In this document: in pieces, positions 2,863 through 59,983 of the stretch
Numbering within the stretch: position 1 is the stretch's first letter
Layout: each line of letters opens with the position of its first letter
Source: Chthoniobacterales bacterium
GTDB lineage: Bacteria; Verrucomicrobiota; Verrucomicrobiia; Chthoniobacterales; DASVRZ01
Direction: 5' to 3'
NCBI GenBank assembly: GCA_038228695.1
Contig: JBBRPA010000007.1
Coordinates: 8,263 to 72,262 of the forward strand
Length of the DNA: 64,000 bases
Position numbers and translations under genes: made by a program
Notes under the pieces: model-generated
Database searches by the model: none
What the model saw: the letters and a program-made list of their open reading frames with translations, nothing else
Told to the model about the DNA's origin: nothing

Positions 2863-4098
2863 TTAGTTGGTCAGTTTGAGAGATTCGAGGAGGCGCGGAT
2901 CGCGGGAGGGGAAGAGACCGCGTTTGCCGACTTCATAGAGGAAGGCAACGACGAGAAAACAACCGATCGCGATGGGGCAGATGAGATCGAGAATGTGCGG
3001 TTCGAATCCGGCCACGTGGATGTTTGGCAGAACGACGATGTAGAGATCGAGGAAGTGCATGCACAGAATCCAGATGGCGATGCCGCTGAGGAGGTTCGGA
3101 ATTTTTTTCACGAACCGGAACAGAAGCATGAGGAAGGGGATGAAGAAATGTCCGATAACGAGGAAGATGTTCAGCGTGTTCCAGCTTTCGGTGTTCCGAA
3201 TGAGGAAATATTCGGTTTCCTCAGGGATGTTTGCGTACCAGATGAGCATGTATTGGGAGAAGCCGATGTAGGCCCAGAAGATGGAGAAAACGAGGAGGAA
3301 TTTCCCCATGATGTGGTAGTGCTCCATGGTAACGACTTTTTGCAGATAACCCAGTTTGCGGAGACCGGTGATGACGAGAATAAGAACGGCCATCGAGCTG
3401 AGAGCGGAGCCGGCGAAAATATAAACGCCCCACATCGTGGAGTACCATTTGTAATTGAGGGCCATGATCCAATCGATGCCGGCGAAGGTGATTGAGAGGG
3501 CAAAGAACGGGAGGGCGCGGTAGGATTTGGTCCGCATCTTCAAGCTGTGCTGGATGTCGCCCGAGGCATCCTGCGCGGTGGAATGGCTGCGGAACGTGCG
3601 GGCAAAAAAGGTGAAGAAGGCGAAGTAAAAAACGGTGCGAATCCAGAAAAGCGGAAATTTGATTCCGGCAATGACCGGGTAAAAATACCAAGTCTTAGAA
3701 GCAAAAACGGCGTCTTTGGCGGGATCGACACTGATCCATTCCCAAATCGTGGTGCGAAAGAAAATAAGCGGTAGGAAAAAGACCGCGAGATACGGCATGA
3801 GAGAGGCGAGATTTTCCATCTGACGGCGAACGGTAACGGACCAAGCGGCATCGGTGGCGTGATGCAGGATGACCCAGAAAAGGGAGCCGGCGAGGATGGT
3901 GAAGAAGAAGAGGAAGGCAAAGAGCCAAGAGAAGGCGAACTGCTTGGCGAGCAACTCGTCATGGCCAGCCCGGAAGCCGTAGATCGCGGCAATGAGCAAG
4001 GCAGCGAGACCGGTCAGAGTGACGGAAAAGCCGAGGCGGCTGGTGGTTTTGGAGTCGAATTGCTCCGGTTTCGGTAGGGTAATAGAATGATCGCTCAC
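2863..4098 (-). CDS. actF: Alternative Complex III subunit ActF (NrfD-like membrane subunit 2)
   Basis: 411-aa polytopic membrane protein. It is the last gene of an actABCDEF-ordered cluster and overlaps actE as ATGA. Its size and position match ActF. Confidence 0.75.
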   Translation of the reverse strand: MSDHSITLPKPEQFDSKTTSRLGFSVTLTGLAALLIAAIYGFRAGHDELLAKQFAFSWLFAFLFFFTILAGSLFWVILHHATDAAWSVTVRRQMENLASLMPYLAVFFLPLIFFRTTIWEWISVDPAKDAVFASKTWYFYPVIAGIKFPLFWIRTVFYFAFFTFFARTFRSHSTAQDASGDIQHSLKMRTKSYRALPFFALSITFAGIDWIMALNYKWYSTMWGVYIFAGSALSSMAVLILVITGLRKLGYLQKVVTMEHYHIMGKFLLVFSIFWAYIGFSQYMLIWYANIPEETEYFLIRNTESWNTLNIFLVIGHFFIPFLMLLFRFVKKIPNLLSGIAIWILCMHFLDLYIVVLPNIHVAGFEPHILDLICPIAIGCFLVVAFLYEVGKRGLFPSRDPRLLESLKLTN

Positions 4099-6811: not shown

Positions 6812-9800
6812 TAGTGGTGTGCTCCTGCGGGTTCGGAAGTTTTCGCTTTTGCGTTCGGATCGCGGGCCGGACCCGTGCTTCCGGGTGCGCCTTCCCCGTG
6901 GAGCGATTCGTATTCGTCGGGATAAATGTCGGCCACTTTGTCGGCTCCGGGCATTTTCGGATTCGGGTTGCGAATGCGAGCCAGATAACTGGTGCGGGTG
7001 CGGATGTTGAGATACTCGAGCAACCGATAGCGGCGGGGATTGTCCTGCAGTTTTGCGAGAGCGCTGTCCGGGTCGTTTAAGTCGCCGAAGGTGATCGCCT
7101 CAGCCGGGCAGGCCTGTTGGCAAGCGGACTTGATCGTATCAGTCGGGATCTTGAGTTTGTCCGAACCGCCCGCTTTGACGCGTGACGTGATGCGATGCTC
7201 CTCGATGCGTTGGAGGCAATAGGTGCATTTCTCCATCACGCCGCGAATGCGGACGGTGACGTTCGGATTCTTCTGCATCTTGGTCAACTCCTCGGTGCCT
7301 TTCGGAGCGAGAGGTCCGTAATAGAGTCCGCTTGCTTCGGGCAGCGGGCCGACCTTGATTTTTTCGATTGGGCGCTCGTTGTAGTTGAAGAAATTGAAAC
7401 GGCGCACTTTGAACGGGCAATTGTTCGCGCAATAACGCGTGCCGATGCAGCGGTTGTAGGCCATCACGTTGAGGCCGTCTTCGCTGTGAACCGTGGCGTT
7501 GACTGGGCAAACCGTCTCGCAAGGGGCGTTCTCACATTGCTGACAACCCACCGGTTGCATGACCATTTCCGGTTCGGTCTCATCGTGTTCGTCGCCTGAT
7601 GTAGCGAAATAACGATCGATTCGCAGCCAGTGCATTTCGCGGGAATTGTGGACCTGCTCCTTGCCGACAATCGGAATGTTATTCTCCGCTTGGCAGGCGA
7701 TGGTGCAGGCGCTGCAACCGGTGCACGTGTTTAGGTCGATGACCATGCCCCATTGCTCGGGCATGCCGAGTTTCGGAGATTTATAGAGGGAAATATTCGG
7801 CGGAATGTGCCCGTCGATGTGCATCGTCTTGGCAAATGCGGGCTCGGCTTCGAATTTCGCCTTGGTTCCCTCGCGCACGAGGGCGCGTCCCTCCATTTGA
7901 TGATGCTCTTGGGTGAAAGCGAGAAGATGTTGACCTTGGGATTTGACGATTTTCGCGCCGTTAGCGAAACCGGAATCGGTGGAAGTGAGCAGCGCAAAGG
8001 CGTTGAAACCAACCCCAGTGCCGACTTTTCCGGCGGTGCCCGTAGCGTGACCGTAGCCTCGGGCGAGCGTGATCGAATCATCGGCGTGGCCGGGCGAAAC
8101 GAGTACGGGCACTTCGAGGGCGCGGCCTCCGATCGTTAGCTTAACGAGGTCGTTGTCGTTCAGACCGTGGGCCTTAGCGAATTTTCGGGAAATCAGCGCC
8201 GCGTTATCCCAAGTGAGCTTCGAGACCGGGTCGGGCAACTCATGGAGCCAGCCGTTGTCGATGCTGTTGCCGTCAGGGATTTTGTAGTCGGGCGGGAAAA
8301 CAACCTCGATCACTTTCGGATCGGGCAGCGAAATCGGGGCGTCAAAACGGCGGAAGGCGAGATTCGCCGCAGCGGGTTTTCCCTCGGCGTAACCGGTGCG
8401 GAGGAAGTTCGACCAGGTCGTGCCTTGGCCCTGTTTTTCGAAGGTGGCTTTAACCAGCTCCGCGCCGACAGGGACGGGTGAACCAGCAAGAAGCGTGAGC
8501 ACGTCGTTGACCGAGAGACCGCCGAAAAGCGGGAGAATCATTGGCTGGACGGGCACGTAGGTGCCATCCGGGCTGAAGGCGTCGTCCCAACTCTCAAGGA
8601 AATGGGTGCCGGGCACGTGCCATTTGGCAGCTTGGGCGGTCGCGTCGGTCCGCAATCCGACGTGAACGACATCGGGAACAGATTTGAGCAGTTCGCCGAA
8701 TTTTAAGTCTGCTGGCGCAGTGTAAACCGGGTCGGATTCAAGAATGAAAAGCGTGGAGACCAACTTATCTTGGATCGCACGGGTCAAGTCGGTGAGGGTT
8801 CCGGCCGCGGACGCCGCGGTGGCCACTCCGCGAAGGGTGGTGCCGATATTGCCGAGGGCTTGGTTAATAGCGAAACCGAGTGCCTGCACTTCGACCGGCT
8901 GGCGCGGACCGACAATGACGAGGCTGCGTCCTTGGGCAGAGAGAAGGTCGGCGGCGCATTCCGCAATCCATTTCGGATCCACCCCGGGAATCTCCGGAGC
9001 CAGCGTCATGTTCATCCCGAGTTTGGCCGCGAGGGAAACGAGGAAAGCAACAGCTTGGCTGGCCTTCAGGCGCAAGCGGTGATCCGCCATGCCGCCCGTG
9101 ATCGTGTAGCGGTTTTCGACCGCATAGAGGCGGTTCATTTTTTCTTTCGGATCGCGTCGTTTGGAAAATTGCCGAGTCGGCTCCGTCCCAACCGCGTCGA
9201 TCCCAAGGAAATCGGAATCCACCGCGACGACGACGTCTGCTTTCTCAAAATCGTAACTCAGCGCCACGCCTTCGCCGAAGCTCTTCGCCACAGCCTGATC
9301 GAGGACACTGCCGGTCGGATCGTAAACGTGGAATTTTGCGGCGGGATAAATCGCGAGGACTTCTTTCTTAAGGCGCTCCCGAGTCGGCGAATGGCTGACA
9401 TCGGAAAGAAAGGCGAGACCTTCGCCCTTTTTCTCGGCGATTTTCGGGAGGAGATCCTTCAGGTAATTCTCGAAAGAAGCGCGGTCAGATTTTTTCCCGT
9501 TGGCGATAAAAAATTTCGAGCGGTCCGGGTTGTAAAGATCGAGAATGGTAGCCTGCGCTTGAAGATCGGTCGCGCCACTGCTCGCGGGATGAAGCGGGTT
9601 GCCCTCGATCTTGGTCGGACGACCGTCGTGGGTCGTGACCATTAGGGGCATGGCACCGCCGCGGCGGGGCATCGCACTGGCATAAAAGAGAGCTTTCCCG
9701 GGAACGCTCCACTCGACGCTCTTGGAAAGCGCGGCAAATTGGATCTCCGGACGGCGGCAACCACTAAATCCGAAGCCGGCCAGGGCGAGCGACGCTCCCA

Positions 9801-10650: not shown

Positions 10651-10965
10651 GGCTTATTGGAGCGCGATCACCCGAGGGCTGGTCAGGCGCGGCGTTTTAC
10701 AGACTGTGATCACGTTGGGTTGAGGCATTTTCGGGCTTGCGCAGCCACGGAAAAACACGGCCTCCGAGGAACTGCGAGGCCCAGAGATTATAAATCCTCT
10801 TTTCATTATCAATCAAAATTCTGCGTATTTTCAGCGTTTTTTTCGTTCGTTTCGCGTTGACCCGAAGAAAGTGGAAATTAAGCTATTATTAAAAATTCTA
10901 ATAGCAAACATATTTTGCGGCGAAACTGGACAAGCTTTCCAGTCAAGGCATCGTTGCGCCGCGCC

Positions 10966-11694
10966 ATGTCTCTGCCCTCCGAATCCATCCATCCTCTGCG
11001 GGCCGGGCTCATCGCCGCGCGCGCCACTTGGCTGCCCGGGCTGCTCGTTCAAGGGACGATGGTGGGGGTCGTATTGACTTATTATAAGGTCCCGCAGGCC
11101 CGCCCGGTTTTTGACCAGATTGCCCGGTGGAAATCGGAAGGGGGCGTGGCCTTTTCCATTGTCTCCGCCATGGTGGCCGGCGGGTTGGTGCCGGAAATTT
11201 TACGGGTCCTCTTCTTCCAATCTGGGCGCGCGACGGCACAAAACGGCCGCAACCTTGCCTTCACCCTCCCCTTTTGGGCGCTTCAGGGGCTCTGGGTCGA
11301 TTTCTTTTACCGCGGCCAAGCGGCTTGGTTCGGAAACAACCCGGCTCCATGGACGATCGCGAAAAAAGTCTGCGTGGACCAGTTTCTCTACAATCCTTTG
11401 GTCGCCGCTCCGTTTGGAATCACATTGTATGAATGGAAGAATCGCGGCTACCGCTGGTCGAGCGAGTTTCTTTCTTGGGCTTGGTATCGCGGGCGGATCA
11501 TCCCCGGGCTAGTCGCCACCTGGGCAGTCTGGATTCCGCTGGTTAGCGTGGTTTATTGTTTGCCCCAAACACTACAAATCCCGATTTTCTGTCTGGCACT
11601 GACCTTTTGGGTGACGCTCTTTACTTGGATGACAGAGATTCTCGCCAAAAAGAACCAGCAAGTGCCGAACGACGCAGCGCACCTCGCCCGATGA
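10966..11694 (+). CDS. Mpv17/PMP22-like integral membrane protein (tentative)
   Basis: I chose the ATG at 10966 (MSLPSE...). The ORF track starts at a TTG at 10915. It is a multi-TM protein, and the C-terminal W.WIP....Y.LP....IP.....FW pattern resembles the Mpv17/PMP22 family. Its stop overlaps the next gene's start as ATGA. Confidence 0.45.
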   Translation: MSLPSESIHPLRAGLIAARATWLPGLLVQGTMVGVVLTYYKVPQARPVFDQIARWKSEGGVAFSIVSAMVAGGLVPEILRVLFFQSGRATAQNGRNLAFTLPFWALQGLWVDFFYRGQAAWFGNNPAPWTIAKKVCVDQFLYNPLVAAPFGITLYEWKNRGYRWSSEFLSWAWYRGRIIPGLVATWAVWIPLVSVVYCLPQTLQIPIFCLALTFWVTLFTWMTEILAKKNQQVPNDAAHLAR

Positions 11695-12272
11695 TCGACC
11701 CGCTTTTAGTCATCACACAGACTCGGGAGTATCTTGCGCGCAACCCTCGGGAAGCCGAGCGGCTGGAGCCGTTCCGGATTTTCTTAGAAACGAACGCGCC
11801 AAAGCAGGTCATCTCCCGGAAGCATTTGGCTGGACACGTCACGACCAGCGGATTCCTCGTCAATGATAACGGCGAATCGCTTTTGCTCATTCATCACCGC
11901 AAGTTGGATCGTTTCCTCCAGCCCGGGGGCCACCTCGAGGACGACCCCACCCTGCTCGCCAGCGCGTTGCGGGAAATCCGCGAAGAGGTCGGTCTGCAGG
12001 AAGAGGCGCTCACCCTTTGCCAGCCGGACCATCTTCCCTGCGACATTGATCCCCACCGGATCCCGGCCCGGGGGGAACAACCGGAACACTGGCATTTCGA
12101 TTTCCGCTACCTCTTCCGGGTGCGACCTGGGGCGGAGATCGCCTGTCAAGCCGACGAGGTGGCAGGGGCGGACTGGTTCGGCTGGGAGAGCGAAGAGGTC
12201 CGCCAAATTCTGCCTGAACACGTGATCCGCCGGCTCCGGACCACTATTTGCGCCCAGACACCCGGCGTGTGA
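11691..12272 (+). CDS. NUDIX hydrolase
   Basis: A Nudix box is present: GGHLEDDPTLLASALREIREEVGL (GX5EX7REUXEEXGU). I chose the ATG at 11691 (MIDPLLV...), which overlaps the upstream stop. The 11556 start in the ORF track would overlap the upstream gene by 139 nt. Confidence 0.8.
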   Translation: MIDPLLVITQTREYLARNPREAERLEPFRIFLETNAPKQVISRKHLAGHVTTSGFLVNDNGESLLLIHHRKLDRFLQPGGHLEDDPTLLASALREIREEVGLQEEALTLCQPDHLPCDIDPHRIPARGEQPEHWHFDFRYLFRVRPGAEIACQADEVAGADWFGWESEEVRQILPEHVIRRLRTTICAQTPGV

Positions 12273-12394
12273 TGTCTCTTTTTAGGCAGATTGAGCGACT
12301 GCAACCAAAGTCACCCCGTCAAAACCGCAGATTCACCCGATCGTTGCGGCACAGGGCGCCGGATTTCGCTCCGTATTTATAAAAACTCCGGGCT

Positions 12395-12410
12395 TGGCTC
12401 GGATGTTGCT
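12395..12410 (+). promoter_or_regulatory. candidate sigma-54 (-24/-12) promoter element upstream of amt
   Basis: TGGCTC-GGATG-TTGCT has the GG-N10-GC spacing of the TGGCAC-N5-TTGC consensus. It lies about 410 nt upstream of the amt start, so it implies a very long leader. This is a single-site match only. Confidence 0.25.
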
Positions 12411-12713
12411 TCCCGCCGAGCCGTGTTCAAATTTGTGTCATACGTTTTGATTGTCTGCGGATTTCTGGGAGGGAATCTGCGGGAGATCGCTCCGTTGCAA
12501 CCCGGTCAAAAACACGCATCCGTCCTCGAGTTAACCAGCGCCAACGAGCGCGATCTACCGACGGACAATGCTTTGTCGGCGGCAGAGACCTGCCTCCACG
12601 CGGAGGTAGAAGAAATGCTCTTTCGAGAAAGCTCGAGCCCAATGCGGCTCCCAAAGGAAGGGCGCGCAGACCAGATTTTTTCCAGCCTGTCAGGGGCGCG
12701 GGATCCGCCAGCA

Positions 12714-12786
12714 AGGGGTTGAGCCCCTTTTTCTAGGCTCACTGACCCGTCTGCTGCGGAACCGAATTGCTTCGGTCCCGTTTTTA
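12714..12786 (+). promoter_or_regulatory. two terminator-like hairpins in the amt leader (possible attenuator or riboswitch expression platform)
   Basis: Hairpin 1 is AGGGG-ttgag-CCCCT followed by TTTTCT (12714-12734). Hairpin 2 is GGA(A)CCGAA-ttgc-TTCGGTCC followed by CGTTTTTA (12758-12786). The second ends about 33 nt before the amt ATG. Confidence 0.35.
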
Positions 12787-12818
12787 ATCTCAACCAACCA
12801 AATCTTTACTCGCTTAAT

Positions 12819-14606
12819 ATGTTTAAACTTAACCTGAAAAGACATCTCACTGTCTTAATTTGCACTCTGGTGGCCTGTACCGCCTCGATTAGTATAACGA
12901 ATGCGCAAGAGGCCGCTGCCCCAGTCGCAGAAGCACCTGCTCCAGCGCCTCAGCAGCCTGACTCCGCGGCCTACCCGCCCGGAGCCAACGCCGGAACTGC
13001 CACCGACTTAACGTGGCCCATTCCTGCGGATTCAGCCAGCGTCAATCCCGCCGGAAAAGGCGCAGTCACCAACGACGAACTCATCGCCAACGTCGCTCAC
13101 AACAAAATCTCCATCAACTTGATGTGGACGCTCATCACGGGCTTCCTCGTTATGTTCATGCAGGCAGGTTTTGCCTTGGTCGAAACTGGCTTGTGCCGCG
13201 CGAAAAACGCGGCGCACGTCATGGCCACGAACTTCATGATCTATGGTCTGGGCATGCTCGGATTCTGGATCTGCGGATTCGCGATCATGTTCGGCAACTA
13301 TTGGAATGGACCAGTGCCGATTGGCTGGCAGCCCTCTCTCGGACAAGGTCTCGCCTTGCTGAATAGCGGCTGGACTGTCCAAATCATGGGCCACCCGTTC
13401 GGTCTGATGGGACTCAAAGGATTTTTCCTGAATCCGAGCGTCTTTGATACCGCGGTTCTGACGTTGTTCTTGTTCCAAATGGTGTTCATGGACACCACGG
13501 CCACCATTCCTACCGGGACGATGGCCGAGCGCTGGAACTTCAAACACTTCATCGTATACGGATTCTGGGTCGGTATGCTTCCCTACTCCATCTACGGAAA
13601 CTGGGTCTGGGGCGGCGGCTGGCTCGCGCAACTTGGTCAAAACTTCGGTTTTGGTCACGGCGCAGTCGATTTCGCCGGCTCCGGCGTCGTTCACTTGTGC
13701 GGCGGCGTCATTGCCCTCGCCGGTGGCTTGGTGATCGGACCTCGCCTTGGAAAATATGGCAAAGACGGAAAGCCTCGCGCCATGCCGGGTCACGACGTTC
13801 CTATGGTCATGCTCGGAACGTTCATTCTGGCTCTCGGCTGGTTCGGATTTAACCCCGGATCGACTCTGGCTGGCACCGACCATCGCATCGCCATCGTGGC
13901 CGTGAATACCATGCTCGCCGGTGCTGCGGCTTCCTGCGGCACATTGCTAACCATGTATCTCGTCACCGGAAAACCGGATCCAACCATGCTTTGCAACGGT
14001 TTGCTGGCGGGCTTGGTCGCGATCACTGCGCCCTGTGCTTTCGTTAGCACAACAGGTGCTGTGATCATCGGTTTCATCGCTGGTGTCATCGTTGTCTTCT
14101 CGGTATTCTTCTGGGAACGCACCGCTAAGGTTGACGACTGCGTGGGTGCCCTTTCGGTGCACGGAGTCTGCGGTGCCTGGGGCGTCCTCAGCGTGGGCAT
14201 ATTCGCCAACGGCTCCTACGGGGCCGGTTGGGGTGGCGTGCACAAACTATTCAAAGATGGACAAATCATGACCATCATCAACGATGCAAAACCAGAAACT
14301 CTCGCCAAATATGCGGAGATGACGGGCAGCGGCTGGGCCGATCAAGGCGTTACCGGTATTCTCGGTAAATTCTTCGGTGCTGCGACCTCGGATGCATCGC
14401 AGTTGATCGCCCAAGGCATCGATACACTCGCTTGTATCGTCTTTGTCTTCTCGTTCTCCTGGGTGTTCTTCAAGATCTCGAATGCGATCGTGCCAATGCG
14501 CTCGTCGAGAGAAGACGAACTCGCCGGACTCGATATTCCTGAAATGGGTGTCGAAGCGTATCCCGACTTCCATGTCACCGACGCCACATCTCCGTCGGTT
14601 GATTAA
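12819..14606 (+). CDS. amt: ammonium transporter (Amt family) with signal peptide and Ala/Pro-rich N-terminal extension
   Basis: 595 aa. Amt family signatures are present: FMQAGFALVETG, AVDFAGSGVVHL.GG, LGWFGFNPGS, VHGVCGAWG and 11 or more TM helices. Confidence 0.9.
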   Translation: MFKLNLKRHLTVLICTLVACTASISITNAQEAAAPVAEAPAPAPQQPDSAAYPPGANAGTATDLTWPIPADSASVNPAGKGAVTNDELIANVAHNKISINLMWTLITGFLVMFMQAGFALVETGLCRAKNAAHVMATNFMIYGLGMLGFWICGFAIMFGNYWNGPVPIGWQPSLGQGLALLNSGWTVQIMGHPFGLMGLKGFFLNPSVFDTAVLTLFLFQMVFMDTTATIPTGTMAERWNFKHFIVYGFWVGMLPYSIYGNWVWGGGWLAQLGQNFGFGHGAVDFAGSGVVHLCGGVIALAGGLVIGPRLGKYGKDGKPRAMPGHDVPMVMLGTFILALGWFGFNPGSTLAGTDHRIAIVAVNTMLAGAAASCGTLLTMYLVTGKPDPTMLCNGLLAGLVAITAPCAFVSTTGAVIIGFIAGVIVVFSVFFWERTAKVDDCVGALSVHGVCGAWGVLSVGIFANGSYGAGWGGVHKLFKDGQIMTIINDAKPETLAKYAEMTGSGWADQGVTGILGKFFGAATSDASQLIAQGIDTLACIVFVFSFSWVFFKISNAIVPMRSSREDELAGLDIPEMGVEAYPDFHVTDATSPSVD

Positions 14607-14622
14607 CCAACACTAATTGCAA

Positions 14623-14660
14623 AGGCCGGGCGCCATTCGTGCGCCCGGCCTCTTGCATTT
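14623..14660 (+). terminator. putative intrinsic terminator after amt
   Basis: 11-bp GC-rich stem AGGCCGGGCGC / GCGCCCGGCCT with loop cattcgt. The following T-tract is weak (CTTGCATTTCATTC). Confidence 0.5.
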
Positions 14661-14681
14661 CATTCAAAAATTACTTTCCCC

Positions 14682-15023
14682 ATGAATTCACTCTCTATCC
14701 TACTCAGTATCAGCTCCCTTGTGGTTTTGGTTCTGGGATTTTTTGCCTGGCATCTCACGAGCAGCCGCTCACTTTTTGGCAGTGTCATTTTTGGCACTTT
14801 CGGCTTTATGCTCGCCGCCTTTTACGCGGCCTCTCATCGCAATACGCAAATGATTTTTGTGTTCCCATTTTTCATCACCATGATTTTCGGAGGCCGGGCC
14901 TTCGCGATACTGGTTCGCAGTCTAAGAGGCGAAAAAGAGTTGCGCTTGCCCTCCACCTTGCTGATCGGCGCTACCACAGTGTCTTTGGCGGCCTCGCTCG
15001 CGGCGTATTTTTCCCTCGCCTAG
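14682..15023 (+). CDS. hypothetical small membrane protein (about 4 TM)
   Basis: 113-aa ORF that is hydrophobic throughout, with no recognisable motif. The alternative-frame ORF at 14639..15232 looks like a frame shadow. Confidence 0.4.
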   Translation: MNSLSILLSISSLVVLVLGFFAWHLTSSRSLFGSVIFGTFGFMLAAFYAASHRNTQMIFVFPFFITMIFGGRAFAILVRSLRGEKELRLPSTLLIGATTVSLAASLAAYFSLA

Positions 15024-15070
15024 CGCACCAGACTGGCGGCTGTCGCTGCAACGATCATCGATCGAATCCG

Positions 15071-15215
15071 ACAAAAAGGAACGGCCGCCCGGATTTCCCG
15101 AGGCGGCCGTTATTTTGTCCAACGATAAGCCGAATTTTGTCACCCGCCGATTCCCCGACAGCGCTGCTTTCGCAATTTACCGGGAGCCCAACGAATCCTC
15201 GCGACGAATCGAGAT
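15071..15215 (-). repeat. degenerate duplicate of the rnpB 3' end plus its terminator hairpin (pseudo-rnpB fragment)
   Basis: By manual alignment, 15080-15160 matches 16133-16213 at 73/81 nt. The match includes the ACAAAATTCGGCTTATCG conserved RNase P 3' element and the ACGGCCGCC...GGCGGCCGT hairpin. Weaker, gapped similarity continues to about 15215. Confidence 0.75.
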
Positions 15216-15248
15216 ACGGCTTACGAAATTAGGAGTTCAATAAAACCT

Positions 15249-16109
15249 GTGTTTATTTCCCGAATGACGCGCTTTTTCATTTTGTTTCTCCTGCTTTTCT
15301 GGAACGCCAACGCCCAGGCAGCAGAAGCCTTGCAGAGTTTCCCGAATTGCACCTTGGTCGATCAGCCTTGGGCCGATGGGGACAGTTTTTCGGTGAAATT
15401 TCCCGATGGTAGCGAAAAAACAGTGCGCCTCTATGGAGCGGATTGCATGGAGATCCACCTTAACGGCGACGATTCCAATGCACGGCGGTTGCGCGATCAG
15501 AGGCGTTATTTTGGCATCGCAGATATTCAAAAAGCGAAAGCGCACGGAGAAACGGCCAAAGTCTGGGTGCTCGAAAAGCTCACCAAACCGTTCACCGTGC
15601 ACACCGCGTTTGCCGATGGTCGCGGCGATGGACGTTTCCAGCGGATTTATGGATTCGTGACGACTGCGGACGGAAAAGATTTGGCCACGGAATTAGTTTC
15701 GGGAGGTCTGGCCCGGGCATTTGGGGTCACCCGATCCACTCCGGATGGCACATCTGGAAAGGAATATATGGACCGAATGCGAGACAACGAATTGATCGCC
15801 GCCAAAGTCGGCAAAGGGGCTTGGGCCGACACAAATTGGGCGAAGCTCGGCGAGGAACGACTGCAGGCTCGCACTGAAGTGGCGGAAATCGAAATTGCCA
15901 AGGGAAAGAGCCCTCTGACCGGCACGATCAATTTGAACACAGCCTCTCGTGATGACCTGATGCGCTTGCCCGGGATTGGGGAGACAAAAGCCAACCGCAT
16001 TATTAGCGCCCGAGAGAATCGTCCCTTCAAAAAGGCCGAAGACTTGTTGTCAGTGGAGGGTATTGGGCCCGACCGCCTGGAGAAATTAAGGCCTTTTTTG
16101 GACTTCTAA
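15249..16109 (+). CDS. secreted staphylococcal-nuclease (SNase)-like domain fused to a ComEA-type helix-hairpin-helix DNA-binding domain
   Basis: Signal peptide MTRFFILFLLLFWNANAQA (an alternative ATG lies at 15264). SNase-like motifs: DGDSFSV and VRLYGADCME. The C-terminal INLNTASRDDLMRLPGIGETKANRII....LLSVEGIGPDRLEKLRPFL segment is a ComEA-like HhH pair. Confidence 0.75.
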   Translation: MFISRMTRFFILFLLLFWNANAQAAEALQSFPNCTLVDQPWADGDSFSVKFPDGSEKTVRLYGADCMEIHLNGDDSNARRLRDQRRYFGIADIQKAKAHGETAKVWVLEKLTKPFTVHTAFADGRGDGRFQRIYGFVTTADGKDLATELVSGGLARAFGVTRSTPDGTSGKEYMDRMRDNELIAAKVGKGAWADTNWAKLGEERLQARTEVAEIEIAKGKSPLTGTINLNTASRDDLMRLPGIGETKANRIISARENRPFKKAEDLLSVEGIGPDRLEKLRPFLDF

Positions 16110-16120
16110 TTATTGTGCCA

Positions 16121-16163
16121 ACCCAAAAAAGTAACGGCCGCCCGGATTTCCCCAGGCGGCCGT
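16121..16163 (-). terminator. intrinsic terminator of rnpB (possibly bidirectional, also closing the nuclease gene)
   Basis: On the minus strand, ACGGCCGCC-TGGGGAAATCCG-GGCGGCCGT is followed by TACTTTTTTGGG. On the plus strand the same hairpin is followed by CATTTTG. Confidence 0.7.
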
Positions 16164-16167
16164 CATT

Positions 16168-16591
16168 TTGTCCGACGATAAGCCGAATTTTGTCATCCGC
16201 CGGTTGCCCGGCGCCGTGACGATCATTTATCTCAACGGGACCCAATCGAAACTGAATCCCGCCGCTGAATCTTGCGATTCGAGTGCGACTATTACCCGGG
16301 GATTCCACCGTTGCCGGCAGATGGGCAGGCGGCCCGCTCCCCTGTTTTGTCTTGCACCATCCGGGGTTTATCGTGCGACGCATTTTGCAACGCGCCCGGT
16401 GGGCTCTTACCCCACCTTTTCACCCTGACCCCGACGATTGCTCGCTGGGGCGGTTTGTTTTCTGTGACACTTTCCGTCGAATCCCGCTCTCGCGAAAAAC
16501 TCCCGCGCATTTTACGCGGCGGATTGCCTTGTGGTGTTCGGACTTTCCTCCAGCCTAGCTTGCGCCAGTCCAGCGATCGTCTGTCGGACGC
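16168..16591 (-). ncRNA. rnpB: RNase P RNA, bacterial type A
   Basis: On the minus strand, GAGGAAAGTCCG (CR-I) is the reverse complement of 16539-16550. AGATAAATGATCGTC...ACAAAATTCGGCTTATCGTCGGAC (CR-V/P4 3' side) lies near 16170-16215. P1 pairs GTCCGAC (16589-16583) with GTCGGAC (16176-16170). P2 pairs GACGATC with GATCGTC. GGGTGAAAAGGTGGGGTAAGAGCCCACC corresponds to the E. coli GGGTGAAAGGGTGCGGTAAGAGCGCACC region. The ends are approximate to within 5 nt. Confidence 0.9.
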
Positions 16592-16610
16592 GGCAACGTT
16601 AGCACGAAAG

Positions 16611-17093
16611 TCACGCCATGAGCAGGGAAATTCCAAACACGGCCACCATCACGAGCGCGACAACCACTTTGATGATACTCCCCGCCAATCCGCCTAAAAA
16701 AGTTCCCCAAGTCGACTTACCAGCGGGGAGCAGCCCTTTGCCAGTGAGGAGTTCGCCCGCCAAAACTCCGAGCAGTGGCCCCACGATAATCCCGACCAGA
16801 CCAAAGAAGAGGCCCACGATCGCTCCCAAAATGCCGCCCAACGCACCCCATCGGGTAGCTCCGAAGTATTTCGCGCCTGCCGCGCCGCTCAGAAAATCGA
16901 CCGCCAGCCCCACTAGAACCAAAACCGCCAAAATTGCGATCACGGTCCAGCTTACCCCACGCTCGCCAAAACCCATCCGATGCACGATCGCCCCAGCCAG
17001 AATCAGGACGTGCCCCGGCACCAGAGGCAGAATGGTTCCCAACACCCCACCCAGCATGAGCAGAACAATCACGATCCAGAGAAAAACGTCCAT
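16611..17093 (-). CDS. DUF456-family membrane protein
   Basis: I chose the start at MDVFLWIVIVLL (ATG at 17093); MMNPQ at 17153 is an alternative. The Gly-rich 4-TM pattern (GTILPLVPG, GAAGAKYFGATRWGALGGILGAIVG) is typical of DUF456. The long N-terminal extension to 17420 in the ORF track overlaps the opposite-strand gene and looks spurious. Confidence 0.65.
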   Translation of the reverse strand: MDVFLWIVIVLLMLGGVLGTILPLVPGHVLILAGAIVHRMGFGERGVSWTVIAILAVLVLVGLAVDFLSGAAGAKYFGATRWGALGGILGAIVGLFFGLVGIIVGPLLGVLAGELLTGKGLLPAGKSTWGTFLGGLAGSIIKVVVALVMVAVFGISLLMA

Positions 17094-58039: not shown

Positions 58040-58110
58040 TTACCGCGCATGGATTCGAACCATGAATAAAGCCTCCAAAGGGCTCTGTGTTACCGTTACA
58101 CCACGCGGCA
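58040..58110 (-). tRNA. tRNA-Gln (anticodon UUG)
   Basis: I folded it by hand from the reverse complement. The acceptor is UGCCGCG/CGCGGUA with the U1-A72 pair typical of tRNA-Gln. The D arm is GUGU-AACGGUA-ACAC. The anticodon arm is GAGCC-CUUUGGA-GGCUU. The T arm is CAUGG-UUCGAAU-CCAUG. CCA is not encoded. Confidence 0.9.
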
Positions 58111-59822: not shown

Positions 59823-59895
59823 GGCGCATTCGACTAGTCGGTTAGGTCACAGCCCTCTCAAGGCTGGTGGACGGGTTCGAGTCCCGTATGCGCTA
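59823..59895 (+). tRNA. tRNA-Glu (anticodon CUC)
   Basis: Hand-folded. The acceptor is GGCGCAU/AUGCGCU (G1-U72 wobble). The D arm is GACU-AGUCGGUUA-GGUC. The anticodon arm is CAGCC-CUCUCAA-GGCUG. It has a 4-nt variable loop. The T arm is ACGGG-UUCGAGU-CCCGU. CCA is not encoded. Confidence 0.85.
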
Positions 59896-59908: not shown

Positions 59909-59983
59909 GGCGGGGTAGCCAAGTGGTAAGGCAGGGCTCTGCAAAAGCCCTATTCAGGGGTTCGATTCCCCTCCCCGCCTCCA
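59909..59983 (+). tRNA. tRNA-Cys (anticodon GCA), CCA encoded
   Basis: Hand-folded. The acceptor is GGCGGGG/CCCCGCC. The anticodon arm is GGGCU-CUGCAAA-AGCCC. The T arm is AGGGG-UUCGAUU-CCCCU. The discriminator is U73, followed by an encoded CCA. Confidence 0.9.

Follow-up and report, generated by a model that had tools for sequence, protein, structure and literature searches.

Genomic islands are routinely mapped with the help of displaced 3′ ends of tRNA and tmRNA genes. Integrative elements in stable-RNA genes, and the attL/attR scars that mark them, are reportedly the subject of the 2002 work of Williams and of Islander/TIGER. Some att-flanked DNA carries no integrase: CIMEs, known from the ICESt elements of Streptococcus thermophilus, are cis-mobilisable and are mobilised by a related ICE. 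For rnpB, the gene for RNase P RNA, Reed and Altman are said to have described 113-bp repeats in the 3′ flank of the E. coli K-12 gene (PNAS, 1983), and the 178-bp repeats that follow tyrT are analogous to these. Integrative elements in stable-RNA genes with attL/attR scars are treated in PMC4383910, and known targets include the genes for 6S RNA (ssrS; PMC7192596) and 4.5S RNA (ffs; PMC12540744). At Rhs, CdiA and T6SS effector loci, 3′ ends are displaced by homology-facilitated illegitimate recombination (PMC5361080, in which Jackson et al. 2009 is cited for C-terminal/3′-end displacement). In the literature searched we found no report of rnpB as an integration site.

Here we analyse a 64-kb stretch of DNA (the window) in which the 3′ end and terminator of rnpB occur twice, as copies A and B, around a single gene. 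An initial annotation, made from the letters alone, had likened this to the classic scar of site-specific integration.

The rnpB 3′ end occurs twice

The features of the locus are as follows.

12273-16125: block absent from the most syntenic relative, L086 (tblastn synteny, gene tables)
12819-14606, plus strand: amt, flank on the copy A side (Pfam Ammonium_transp, 7e-104)
14682-15023, plus strand: 113-aa membrane-protein gene, flank on the copy A side
15073-15160, minus strand: copy A, the rnpB 3′ end and terminator in a displaced and decaying form (85 nt at 92%, nhmmer)
15161-15195: segment between copy A and the nuclease leader, in which a 16-nt block alone resembles rnpB
15196-15263, plus strand: conserved 5′ leader of the nuclease gene, aligning upstream of a 75%-identical homologue in contig L002 (5937-6001)
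15264-16109, plus strand: gene for a secreted-type protein of 281 aa, weakly SNase-like in its N-terminal region and ending in an HhH domain of ComEA type (Pfam, PDB, NCBIfam)
16126-16210, minus strand: copy B, the last 48 nt of rnpB and the native, predicted bidirectional terminator hairpin with T and A tracts (repeat search, terminator scan, folding)
16163-16592, minus strand: intact rnpB, RNase P RNA of bacterial type A (Rfam RF00010, model positions 1-367)
16611-17093, minus strand: DUF456 gene, the conserved neighbour on the rnpB 5′ side (Pfam DUF456, 1e-30)

The full-length rnpB matches RF00010 at 203.3 bits (E 2e-64). A repeat search reported a single 85-nt direct repeat, 15073-15157 against 16126-16210, with 78 of 85 positions identical (92%) at a spacing of 1053 nt. 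The repeat consists of the last 48 nt of rnpB (16163-16210) and 37 nt of terminator (16126-16162) and is far above chance expectation; the 19-mer GACAAAATTCGGCTTATCG occurs twice in 64 kb where 0.03 occurrences are expected. With an nhmmer profile of orthologous rnpB 3′ ends, copy A was matched at E 2.4e-21 (15073-15160), and besides copy A no further match was found in the window. A separately assembled Logan contig (SRR19962015) is 100% identical to 13481-16425, spans both copies and encodes the identical 281-aa product. The duplication proposed in the initial annotation is thus confirmed by the repeat, the Rfam and nhmmer matches and an independent assembly. Its count of 73 matches in 81 nt (15080-15160 against 16133-16213) is exact, and the similarity extends past the hairpin to include 48 nt of rnpB. 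Less of its suggestion that gapped similarity continues for about 55 nt further could be upheld: a 16-nt collinear block does lie beyond the repeat (15180-15195 against 16235-16250), but 14 of 500 shuffles score equally well, and the nhmmer similarity to rnpB stops at 15160, leaving 15161-15195 outside the match. This segment may be strongly diverged rnpB or junction filler. Left of their hairpins, the two copies are flanked by sequences unrelated to each other.

The gap between the copies measures 965 nt, and its only gene, as the initial annotation held, is the one convincing ORF at 15264-16109, for which an alternative GTG start exists at 15249. The description of the product as a secreted SNase-ComEA (SNase/HhH) nuclease holds well for the HhH domain (Pfam HHH_3, 8e-20; PDB ComEA matches at about 1e-14; NCBIfam comEA HhH) and is weak for the SNase part, for which the Pfam match is marginal (3e-4, 21.6 bits against a cut-off of 21); NCBIfam EcnA scores 23 bits against 180. 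We refer to the protein as a putative nuclease. The leader at 15196-15263 appears to belong to the nuclease gene unit and not to rnpB, given its alignment upstream of the L002 homologue and a blastn homology to L001 that begins at 15199. The leader is not regarded as rnpB-like; the L002 leader does share a 19-nt match with rnpB (2 of 500 shuffles), which we put down to chance. Contig L002, which carries the closest nuclease homologue, ends 4 nt past the stop codon.

The nuclease has 2045 chromosomal homologues of about 280 aa. Family members lie in several different neighbourhoods, never with an adjacent integrase, contrary to the association with integrases that the initial annotation had considered. 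When the genome collection was scanned with the protein, a single locus was returned (L001, 61% identity), with rnpB not nearby. The composition is native, with a G+C of 0.54 for nuclease and insert against 0.57 for the window. No phage or plasmid link of the nuclease was found in IMG/VR, PHROG or phage BLAST, and there was no full-length plasmid match. The proposal that the gene is the retained cargo of a decayed element is not supported, given its more than 2000 chromosomal homologues, its native G+C and its lack of phage or plasmid relatives in these searches.

The hairpin in the repeat has a G+C-rich stem of 10-12 bp with an A-tract and a T-tract and folds strongly on both strands. For copy B, a terminator scan matched 16165-16132 on the minus strand, and the folding energies are -35.8 kcal/mol (minus strand) and -25.1 kcal/mol (plus strand); copy A folds at -32 to -36 kcal/mol on both strands. 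Over both copies and both strands the range is -25 to -36 kcal/mol, with z of about -3.3 to -4.9. The copy B hairpin is kept, with compensatory changes, at the rnpB loci of all four relatives (L052, L084, L086 and L090), whose rnpB genes are 83-86% identical to that of the window. It is the native rnpB terminator, predicted to be of the bidirectional intrinsic type. The copy A hairpin (15081-15110) lies 50 nt past the stop codon of the 113-aa gene, and hence is a likely terminator of the amt operon.

Copies A and B differ at seven positions of the repeat. The base of B alone is found in the relatives at five of these seven and that of A alone at none, and there are bases common to A and B that no relative has. 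On this comparison the two are sister copies, with most changes in copy A. The divergence of copy A is about 8% in the hairpin part and the rnpB part alike, an even decay that would fit neutral drift after one event. No partition of ancestry is visible along the repeat when A and B are set against the relatives; the copy on the intact rnpB looks native over its whole length, so that no crossover point can be seen. Sliding identity along rnpB gave no robust mosaic with a donor-derived 3′ part, and no clear microhomology for an illegitimate junction was found at 15160-15196.

Empty sites and turnover beside rnpB

The contigs L052, L084, L086-89 and L090/91 keep both the DUF456-rnpB adjacency and the wider TAL-280aa-DUF456-rnpB-terminator synteny. 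The contig with the closest DUF456 homologue, L093, ends inside rnpB. Five related contig types of Verrucomicrobiota (Chthoniobacterales-like) have one rnpB 3′ end each and no nuclease there. Searches of the syntenic contigs with blastn and nhmmer found no second rnpB 3′ copy, and their rnpB terminator is followed directly by another gene. These relatives represent empty sites, and the arrangement in the window is therefore derived. The empty site anticipated by the initial annotation thus exists. A duplicate shared by all relatives and co-evolving with the gene, which it had named as the sign of a functional terminator module, was not seen; the duplicate is absent from the relatives.

The gene right after the rnpB terminator is the nuclease in the window, an Amt paralogue in L090 and NUDIX, directly abutting the terminator, in L086. 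For L052 a Y1_Tnp fragment and others follow, and for L084 a 236-aa membrane-protein gene with a 99-aa ORF after it and no further inserted gene. The far flank, a 231-259-aa membrane protein and an ACIII cluster, is conserved. As the DNA just 3′ of rnpB is different in every relative, this site is a hotspot of gene flux. A donor arrangement, with the nuclease beside rnpB and no duplicate, was found in no genome, and an nhmmer search for older traces of the rnpB end between NUDIX and amt was negative, both for the window and for the relatives.

On the other flank, the amt and 113-aa proteins are 88% and 86% identical to those of L020, in which NUDIX-84aa-Amt-113aa precedes a similar ACGGCC..GGCCGT hairpin, with LGT next in order. 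This hairpin matches the rnpB 3′-end profile at E 1.6 only (nhmmer). The ACGGCC..GGCCGT motif occurs twice in the 64-kb window and at 4 of 83 loci, one of which is the window's own contig. The gene order and the rare-ended hairpin of L020 suggest that the adjacency of 113-aa gene and terminator predates the event. A dispersed REP-like repeat was considered and rejected because the motif is present only twice in the window.

Two further cases of rnpB 3′-end duplication were found. An unrelated metagenomic lineage (L055/L071/L073) has the same geometry, with a 117-nt repeat (93-96% identity), a spacing of 1124 nt and one ORF in an insert that is A+T-richer than its flanks; this pattern is harder to square with import from a distant donor than with a process that is site-specific or duplicates its target. 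In E. coli K-12 the last ~50 nt of rnpB and the terminator are part of a 113-bp unit present in 3.5 tandem copies, and both the length of the array and the flank beyond it vary among E. coli genomes. In both the L055-type lineage and E. coli, the conserved J18/2 element is where the rnpB-derived part of the repeat begins. Among the 63 other rnpB contigs, none had a tandem array of the 3′ end.

Explanations for the second copy

The explanation we favour, to which we give a probability of about 0.45, is a lineage-specific rearrangement scar at the hotspot 3′ of rnpB, made by ordinary recombination anchored in rnpB and involving no dedicated integrase. A unit of ~0.97 kb, comprising the nuclease gene and its own conserved leader, would have arrived between rnpB and the amt/113-aa operon and left the last ~48 nt of rnpB and the bidirectional intrinsic terminator in two copies. 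Copy B would complete the functional rnpB and act as terminator for this gene and for the nuclease gene that converges on it. Copy A would be a non-functional rnpB fragment drifting at ~8%, with its hairpin still placed where the amt operon needs a terminator. The incoming DNA would have carried an rnpB 3′ end, terminator and nuclease gene and could have come from a very close relative or the same genome, either by homology-facilitated illegitimate recombination or by a Campbell-type single crossover, with conserved rnpB sequence as the anchor. This would be 3′-end displacement as proposed for Rhs and T6SS loci. Against the recombination reading we counted that the repeats are arranged precisely as in an att scar.

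Site-specific integration is possible but, in our assessment, unlikely. Copies A and B would then be attR and attL of a small element with an attP mimicking the rnpB 3′ end and terminator, be it what is left of a larger element after loss of the integrase, or a mini-element of CIME type that was mobilised in trans. What stands of the initial interpretation is that the 3′ end was duplicated in association with an insertion, that the arrangement is derived and that relatives have empty sites; together with the intact stable-RNA gene and a displaced fragment in direct repeat this is the classic geometry. Support also comes from the L055 lineage, with the same architecture at nearly the same size and its A+T-richer insert, from the shared J18/2 start of the repeats in that lineage and in E. 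coli, and from ssrS and ffs as established targets. However, nothing at the locus shows that a site-specific integrative element made the duplication. A jackhmmer search seeded with a tyrosine recombinase found none in the 64-kb window, and none was found on the 3′ side of rnpB in a search of 73 loci on short contigs, among them 63 rnpB contigs from the metagenome scan; the sole Xer-like gene among these loci (L037) is on the 5′ side of rnpB. The recurrent Pfam families among 95 ORFs downstream of rnpB include no recombinase family, and no cognate integrase-bearing element was found at the same site in any of the rnpB loci examined, on short contigs. The rnpB 3′ 19-mer is absent from IMG/VR, no phage record has an rnpB fragment except for bacterial contigs that carry a whole host rnpB, and rnpB is not mentioned in the text or supplements of one large integrative-element survey. 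The Acinetobacter 'phage' matches are such bacterial contigs, in which coaD and fdx separate the whole host rnpB from a prophage integrase. In addition, the supposed cargo is a lineage-typical chromosomal gene of native composition, and the copy on the intact rnpB looks native throughout, with no crossover point visible. A different duplication mechanism, which the initial annotation had allowed for, is at least as likely as a site-specific integrative element.

Purely local duplication, which we regard as quite unlikely, could have taken two forms: an E. coli-like tandem later split by the nuclease, or duplication of a block of nuclease, terminator and rnpB 3′ end followed by deletion of one nuclease. 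The sister relationship of A and B and the native composition of the insert agree with it, and the E. coli K-12 array, with its 3.5 units and variable length, implies that the rnpB 3′ region is prone to tandem duplication. Either route nevertheless needs two or three events with end points exactly at the repeat edges, and sits poorly with the unrelated sequence left of the hairpins, the lack of tandem arrays in the 63 other rnpB contigs and the foreign look of the L055-type insert.

A broader idea, which we hold to be improbable, is that the stretch from J18/2 to the terminator of rnpB may be a recurrent attachment site for integrase-less single-gene cassettes of ~1.1 kb, inserted by a trans-acting or unrecognised target-duplicating mechanism, with the window, L055/L071/L073 and the E. 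coli array as three outcomes of one process.

That copy A is a maintained module, either a terminator and RNA element co-evolving with rnpB or a small RNA gene, is largely refuted and very improbable. Its hairpin has stayed intact, in a position well suited to terminating the amt operon, but the duplicate is missing in all relatives, decay is equally fast in the rnpB-derived half and in the hairpin half, one substitution puts a bulge in the stem, and Rfam returns for copy A nothing beyond an RNase P fragment match of 9.5 bits. An assembly or binning artefact joining two contigs at a shared rnpB end is scarcely credible: judging by its relatives, which are MAGs and metagenome contigs, the window is apparently from a metagenome-assembled genome, but the copies differ at 7 of 85 positions and the separate Logan assembly reproduces 13481-16425 exactly.

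Comparison with known systems

The locus combines an att-like signature at an essential ribozyme gene with a 1-kb single-gene insert and no detected recombinase, a caution that not all displaced-3′-end scars are made by integrases. The 3′ flank of rnpB emerges as a recurrent site of gene turnover and 3′-end duplication in a verrucomicrobial clade, one unrelated metagenomic lineage and E. coli. Should these cases share a mechanism, the forty-year-old E. coli rnpB repeats would have an explanation and island-finding tools would gain a new target class; if not, they would be an ordinary by-product of recombination beside a conserved gene.

The window shares with integrative elements in tRNA, tmRNA, ssrS and ffs genes the intact gene, the displaced 3′ copy as a direct repeat and the empty sites in relatives. 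It differs in its target, rnpB, in an insert of only ~1 kb without integrase or mobile-element genes, and in that the copy on the intact gene looks native and not element-borne. A CIME is likewise a small insert with att-like repeats and without a recombinase of its own, but is defined by a cognate integrase-bearing element, and none was found at the rnpB loci examined. E. coli resembles the window in that the 3′ flank of its rnpB repeats the end of the gene together with a terminator hairpin; in E. coli the units run head to tail with a period of 113 and no gene between them, whereas the copies in the window are 1053 nt apart around an 846-nt ORF. The displacement at Rhs, CdiA and T6SS loci resembles the window in having a conserved anchor, new DNA brought in, the old 3′ end left as a downstream orphan and no need for a recombinase. 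Those loci are protein-coding toxin genes under diversifying selection and form arrays, whereas the window has an essential ribozyme gene, an incoming 3′ end that would have been nearly identical to the old one, and one displaced fragment.

The duplicated 3' end of rnpB and the gene between the copies

As the initial annotation had proposed, the 3' end of rnpB and its terminator are duplicated about 1 kb apart, on either side of a nuclease gene:

16163-16592, minus strand: rnpB, complete bacterial type A RNase P RNA (Rfam, 203 bits)
16126-16210: copy B, the end of the intact rnpB with its terminator
15264-16109, plus strand: nuclease ORF with an N-terminal hydrophobic signal-like segment and a C-terminal ComEA-type helix-hairpin-helix (HhH) domain
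15073-15157: copy A, the displaced copy

The single long direct repeat returned by a repeat finder in this region (85 nt, 92% identity, spacing 1053) consists of the terminal 48 nt of rnpB, which take in ACAAAAUUCGGCUUAUCG and the 3' strand of P1, and 37 nt downstream, which hold a G+C hairpin of 10-12 bp with an A-tract on one side and a T-tract on the other. Because folding of the hairpin is strong on either strand in both copies, it has the form of a bidirectional terminator. The earlier count of 73/81 matching positions, in its own coordinates, was reproduced exactly; the gapped similarity described for a further ~55 nt is weak, amounting to one collinear 16-nt block equalled by 14 of 500 shuffles. 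A chance origin is ruled out by a 19-mer core that occurs twice (0.03 expected) and by a profile built from the 3' ends of rnpB orthologues, which matches copy A at E 2e-21 and has no other match in the 64 kb. An assembly artefact is effectively excluded, given that an independent Logan assembly of SRR19962015 runs through both copies and reproduces 13481-16425 with zero differences.

In the nuclease, previously described as SNase-HhH, the ComEA-type HhH domain is strong (Pfam 8e-20; PDB ComEA about 1e-14), whereas the SNase-like N-terminal region is a marginal match. The family is very large (2045 matches); the best 120 of these are all about 280 aa with 56-75% identity, and the named homologues among them are Verrucomicrobiota. 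The gene has G+C and GC3 near its neighbours' values, relatives were absent from IMG/VR and PHROGs, and matches in plasmid records cover the HhH domain only. Homologues lie between PrmA and transketolase genes in L004-L012 and downstream of an aldehyde dehydrogenase region in L002, and there is no rnpB near the homologue in L001. The proposed check for homologues beside integrases was negative: no recombinase adjoins them in any of these neighbourhoods (L001, L002, L004-L012). A conserved leader of ~65 nt, starting at about 15196, is common to the window (15196-15263) and L002 (5937-6001; proteins 75% identical), with the shared pattern …CGAATCGA.AT.CG.CT.ACGAAATTAGGAG…AAACCTGTGTTT…, so the gene unit fills nearly the whole inter-repeat interval. 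The L002 contig, which carries the closest homologue, stops 4 nt past the stop codon (6846-6850), and what lies 3' of it may be a repeat at which the assembly broke off. In L004, a short tandem array of GGTCTCA-like heptamers (2255-2320) separates the homologue from the transketolase gene.

Empty sites in relatives and polarity of the copies

Related contigs were found through homologues of the rnpB-adjacent DUF456 gene (L084, L086-89 and L090/91; 76-81% identical, Chthoniobacterales where named) and through a metagenome scan for the rnpB 3' 19-mer (L052). All keep the order transaldolase, 280-aa protein, DUF456, rnpB, terminator, and their rnpB is 83-86% identical to that of the window, through the hairpin. 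The empty site anticipated by the initial annotation was found in every one: a single rnpB 3' end, and no nuclease at rnpB. The gene after the rnpB terminator differs in every relative:

L084: gene for a 236-aa membrane protein followed by a 99-aa ORF, without any further inserted gene
L086: NUDIX
L090: Amt paralogue that shares only 45% identity with the Amt of the window
L052: truncated Y1 transposase and transporter fragment

The L052 ORF (5493-5825; Pfam Y1_Tnp 5e-7) is a truncated IS200-like Y1 transposase directly 3' of the terminator, and the fragment that comes after it is of an SBF-like transporter gene. Conservation resumes farther out, with the alternative complex III cluster and a membrane protein of 231-259 aa. 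Set against L084, L086, L090, L052 and L020, the interval 10915-16125, which lies between the rnpB terminator and the gene for this membrane protein, is a gene-content hotspot adjoining rnpB. Compared with L086, the window has additional sequence at 12273-16125, which holds amt and the 113-aa gene together with copy A and the nuclease gene. For the amt/113-aa block the closest relative is L020 (Amt 88%, 113-aa protein 86% identical), which has the order NUDIX-84aa-Amt-113aa, then a hairpin, then LGT. This hairpin (3160-3220) is a bidirectional terminator with the rare ACGGCC...GGCCGT ends of the rnpB terminator, and no rnpB is present. Since there are just two instances of this motif in the window, the L020 hairpin is probably the same terminator, and the comparison suggests that the adjacency of the 113-aa gene and the terminator predates the insertion of the nuclease gene.

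The hairpin after rnpB is kept with compensatory changes in 4/4 relatives and is therefore the native rnpB terminator. Several bases are common to copies A and B and found in no relative; the copies are each other's closest relatives, and the duplication is later than the split from all sampled relatives. They differ at 7 of 85 nt. At five of these only B's base is found in relatives, the other two are hairpin positions where relatives have both states, and at none does A's base alone occur. Because copy A is equally diverged in its hairpin and rnpB halves (about 8%), it behaves like a fragment under neutral drift, and copy B like the original held under constraint. The same equal divergence, with the lack of the duplicate in relatives, effectively excludes a conserved functional module. 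No crossover point separating 'native' from 'foreign' sequence is visible in the copies, and no robust mosaic emerged when identity was followed along rnpB in sliding steps.

Parallel repeats and the search for a recombinase

Among 63 metagenome contigs, the same architecture was found in one distant lineage, in three samples:

L055: 6195-7413
L071: 10188-11418
L073: 4340-5571

Here a 558-nt rnpB and its terminator are followed, after 1124 nt, by a second copy of the terminator and of rnpB's final ~75 nt (about 117 nt, 93-96% identical). A single ORF of 80 aa or longer is contained wholly between the copies. Its product is a 226-aa protein without a family match, and it is on the rnpB strand and within an A+T-richer segment with promoter-like sequences; a 171-aa ORF overlaps it on the opposite strand, and an IS30-like transposase lies just past the distal copy. 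When the samples are compared, a small patch (CCCTTTTGCCCA vs CCCTTCTGCCT) has changed places between the proximal and distal copies, and the hairpin has its 4-nt loop inverted (TGTT vs AACA), which shows recombination between the copies and indicates that recombination or gene conversion is ongoing.

In E. coli K-12 (NC_000913.3 3269846-3270266), 3.5 tandem units of 113 bp (96% matches) overlap the rnpB 3' end, each holding the last ~50 nt of rnpB and a terminator hairpin; we take this to be the array of Reed and Altman (1983). Across 5426 E. coli genomes, array length and the flank beyond it (yhaC side) are variable. The rnpB-derived part of the repeat begins, in E. coli as in L055, at the conserved J18/2 AGAUGAAUG element, a coincidence of boundaries. 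The robust repeat of the window begins about 20 nt further 3'.

A jackhmmer search seeded with an Xer-like tyrosine recombinase found none in the 64-kb window and one among 73 loci (L021-L093, of which 63 are rnpB contigs from the metagenome scan), 1.5 kb away on rnpB's 5' side in L037. For the 3.5 kb downstream of these rnpB genes, a Pfam scan of 95 ORFs gave no recombinase among the recurrent families, and the rnpB 3' 19-mer was absent from IMG/VR viral contigs. Matches to the rnpB 3' end in phage databases were bacterial contigs with the whole host rnpB. Rfam detected three tRNA genes in the window, at 58040-58110 (minus), 59823-59895 (plus) and 59909-59980 (plus). In the literature searched, the stable-RNA targets of integrative elements include tRNA, tmRNA, ssrS (PMC7192596) and ffs (PMC12540744), with no report of rnpB, including in the supplements of a large TIGER survey.

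Origin of the arrangement

These observations fit a single derived event at a gene gain/loss hotspot bounded by conserved genes, which would have left the rnpB 3' end and terminator on both sides of a newly placed nuclease gene. A break inside the last 50-90 nt of the essential rnpB would be survived only if a complete 3' end were supplied, so a duplication is the signature to be expected in survivors. The most likely mechanism, with a confidence of 0.45, is recombination anchored in rnpB. It could be homology-facilitated illegitimate recombination; alternatively, a single crossover could have brought in DNA bearing an rnpB end and the nuclease gene. The incoming DNA would derive either from the same genome or from that of a very close relative. 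A site-specific, trans-mobilised mini-element would account for the att-like geometry, the L055 lineage and the repeat boundary common to E. coli and L055, but no recombinase or mobile-element signal was found and we consider it unlikely. Slightly less probable is a local tandem duplication, later split by insertion or followed by deletion: the E. coli array speaks for it, the larger number of events required against it.

The integration scar originally proposed is partly supported: the insertion scar is genuine and its target gene unusual; an integrase is not demonstrably its maker, nor the nuclease demonstrably mobile cargo. What most deserves a systematic survey is that the pattern recurs in E. 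coli and in an unrelated lineage. The recombination anchored in rnpB that we invoke here is the mechanism proposed for Rhs and T6SS loci, namely displacement by homology-facilitated illegitimate recombination (PMC5361080).
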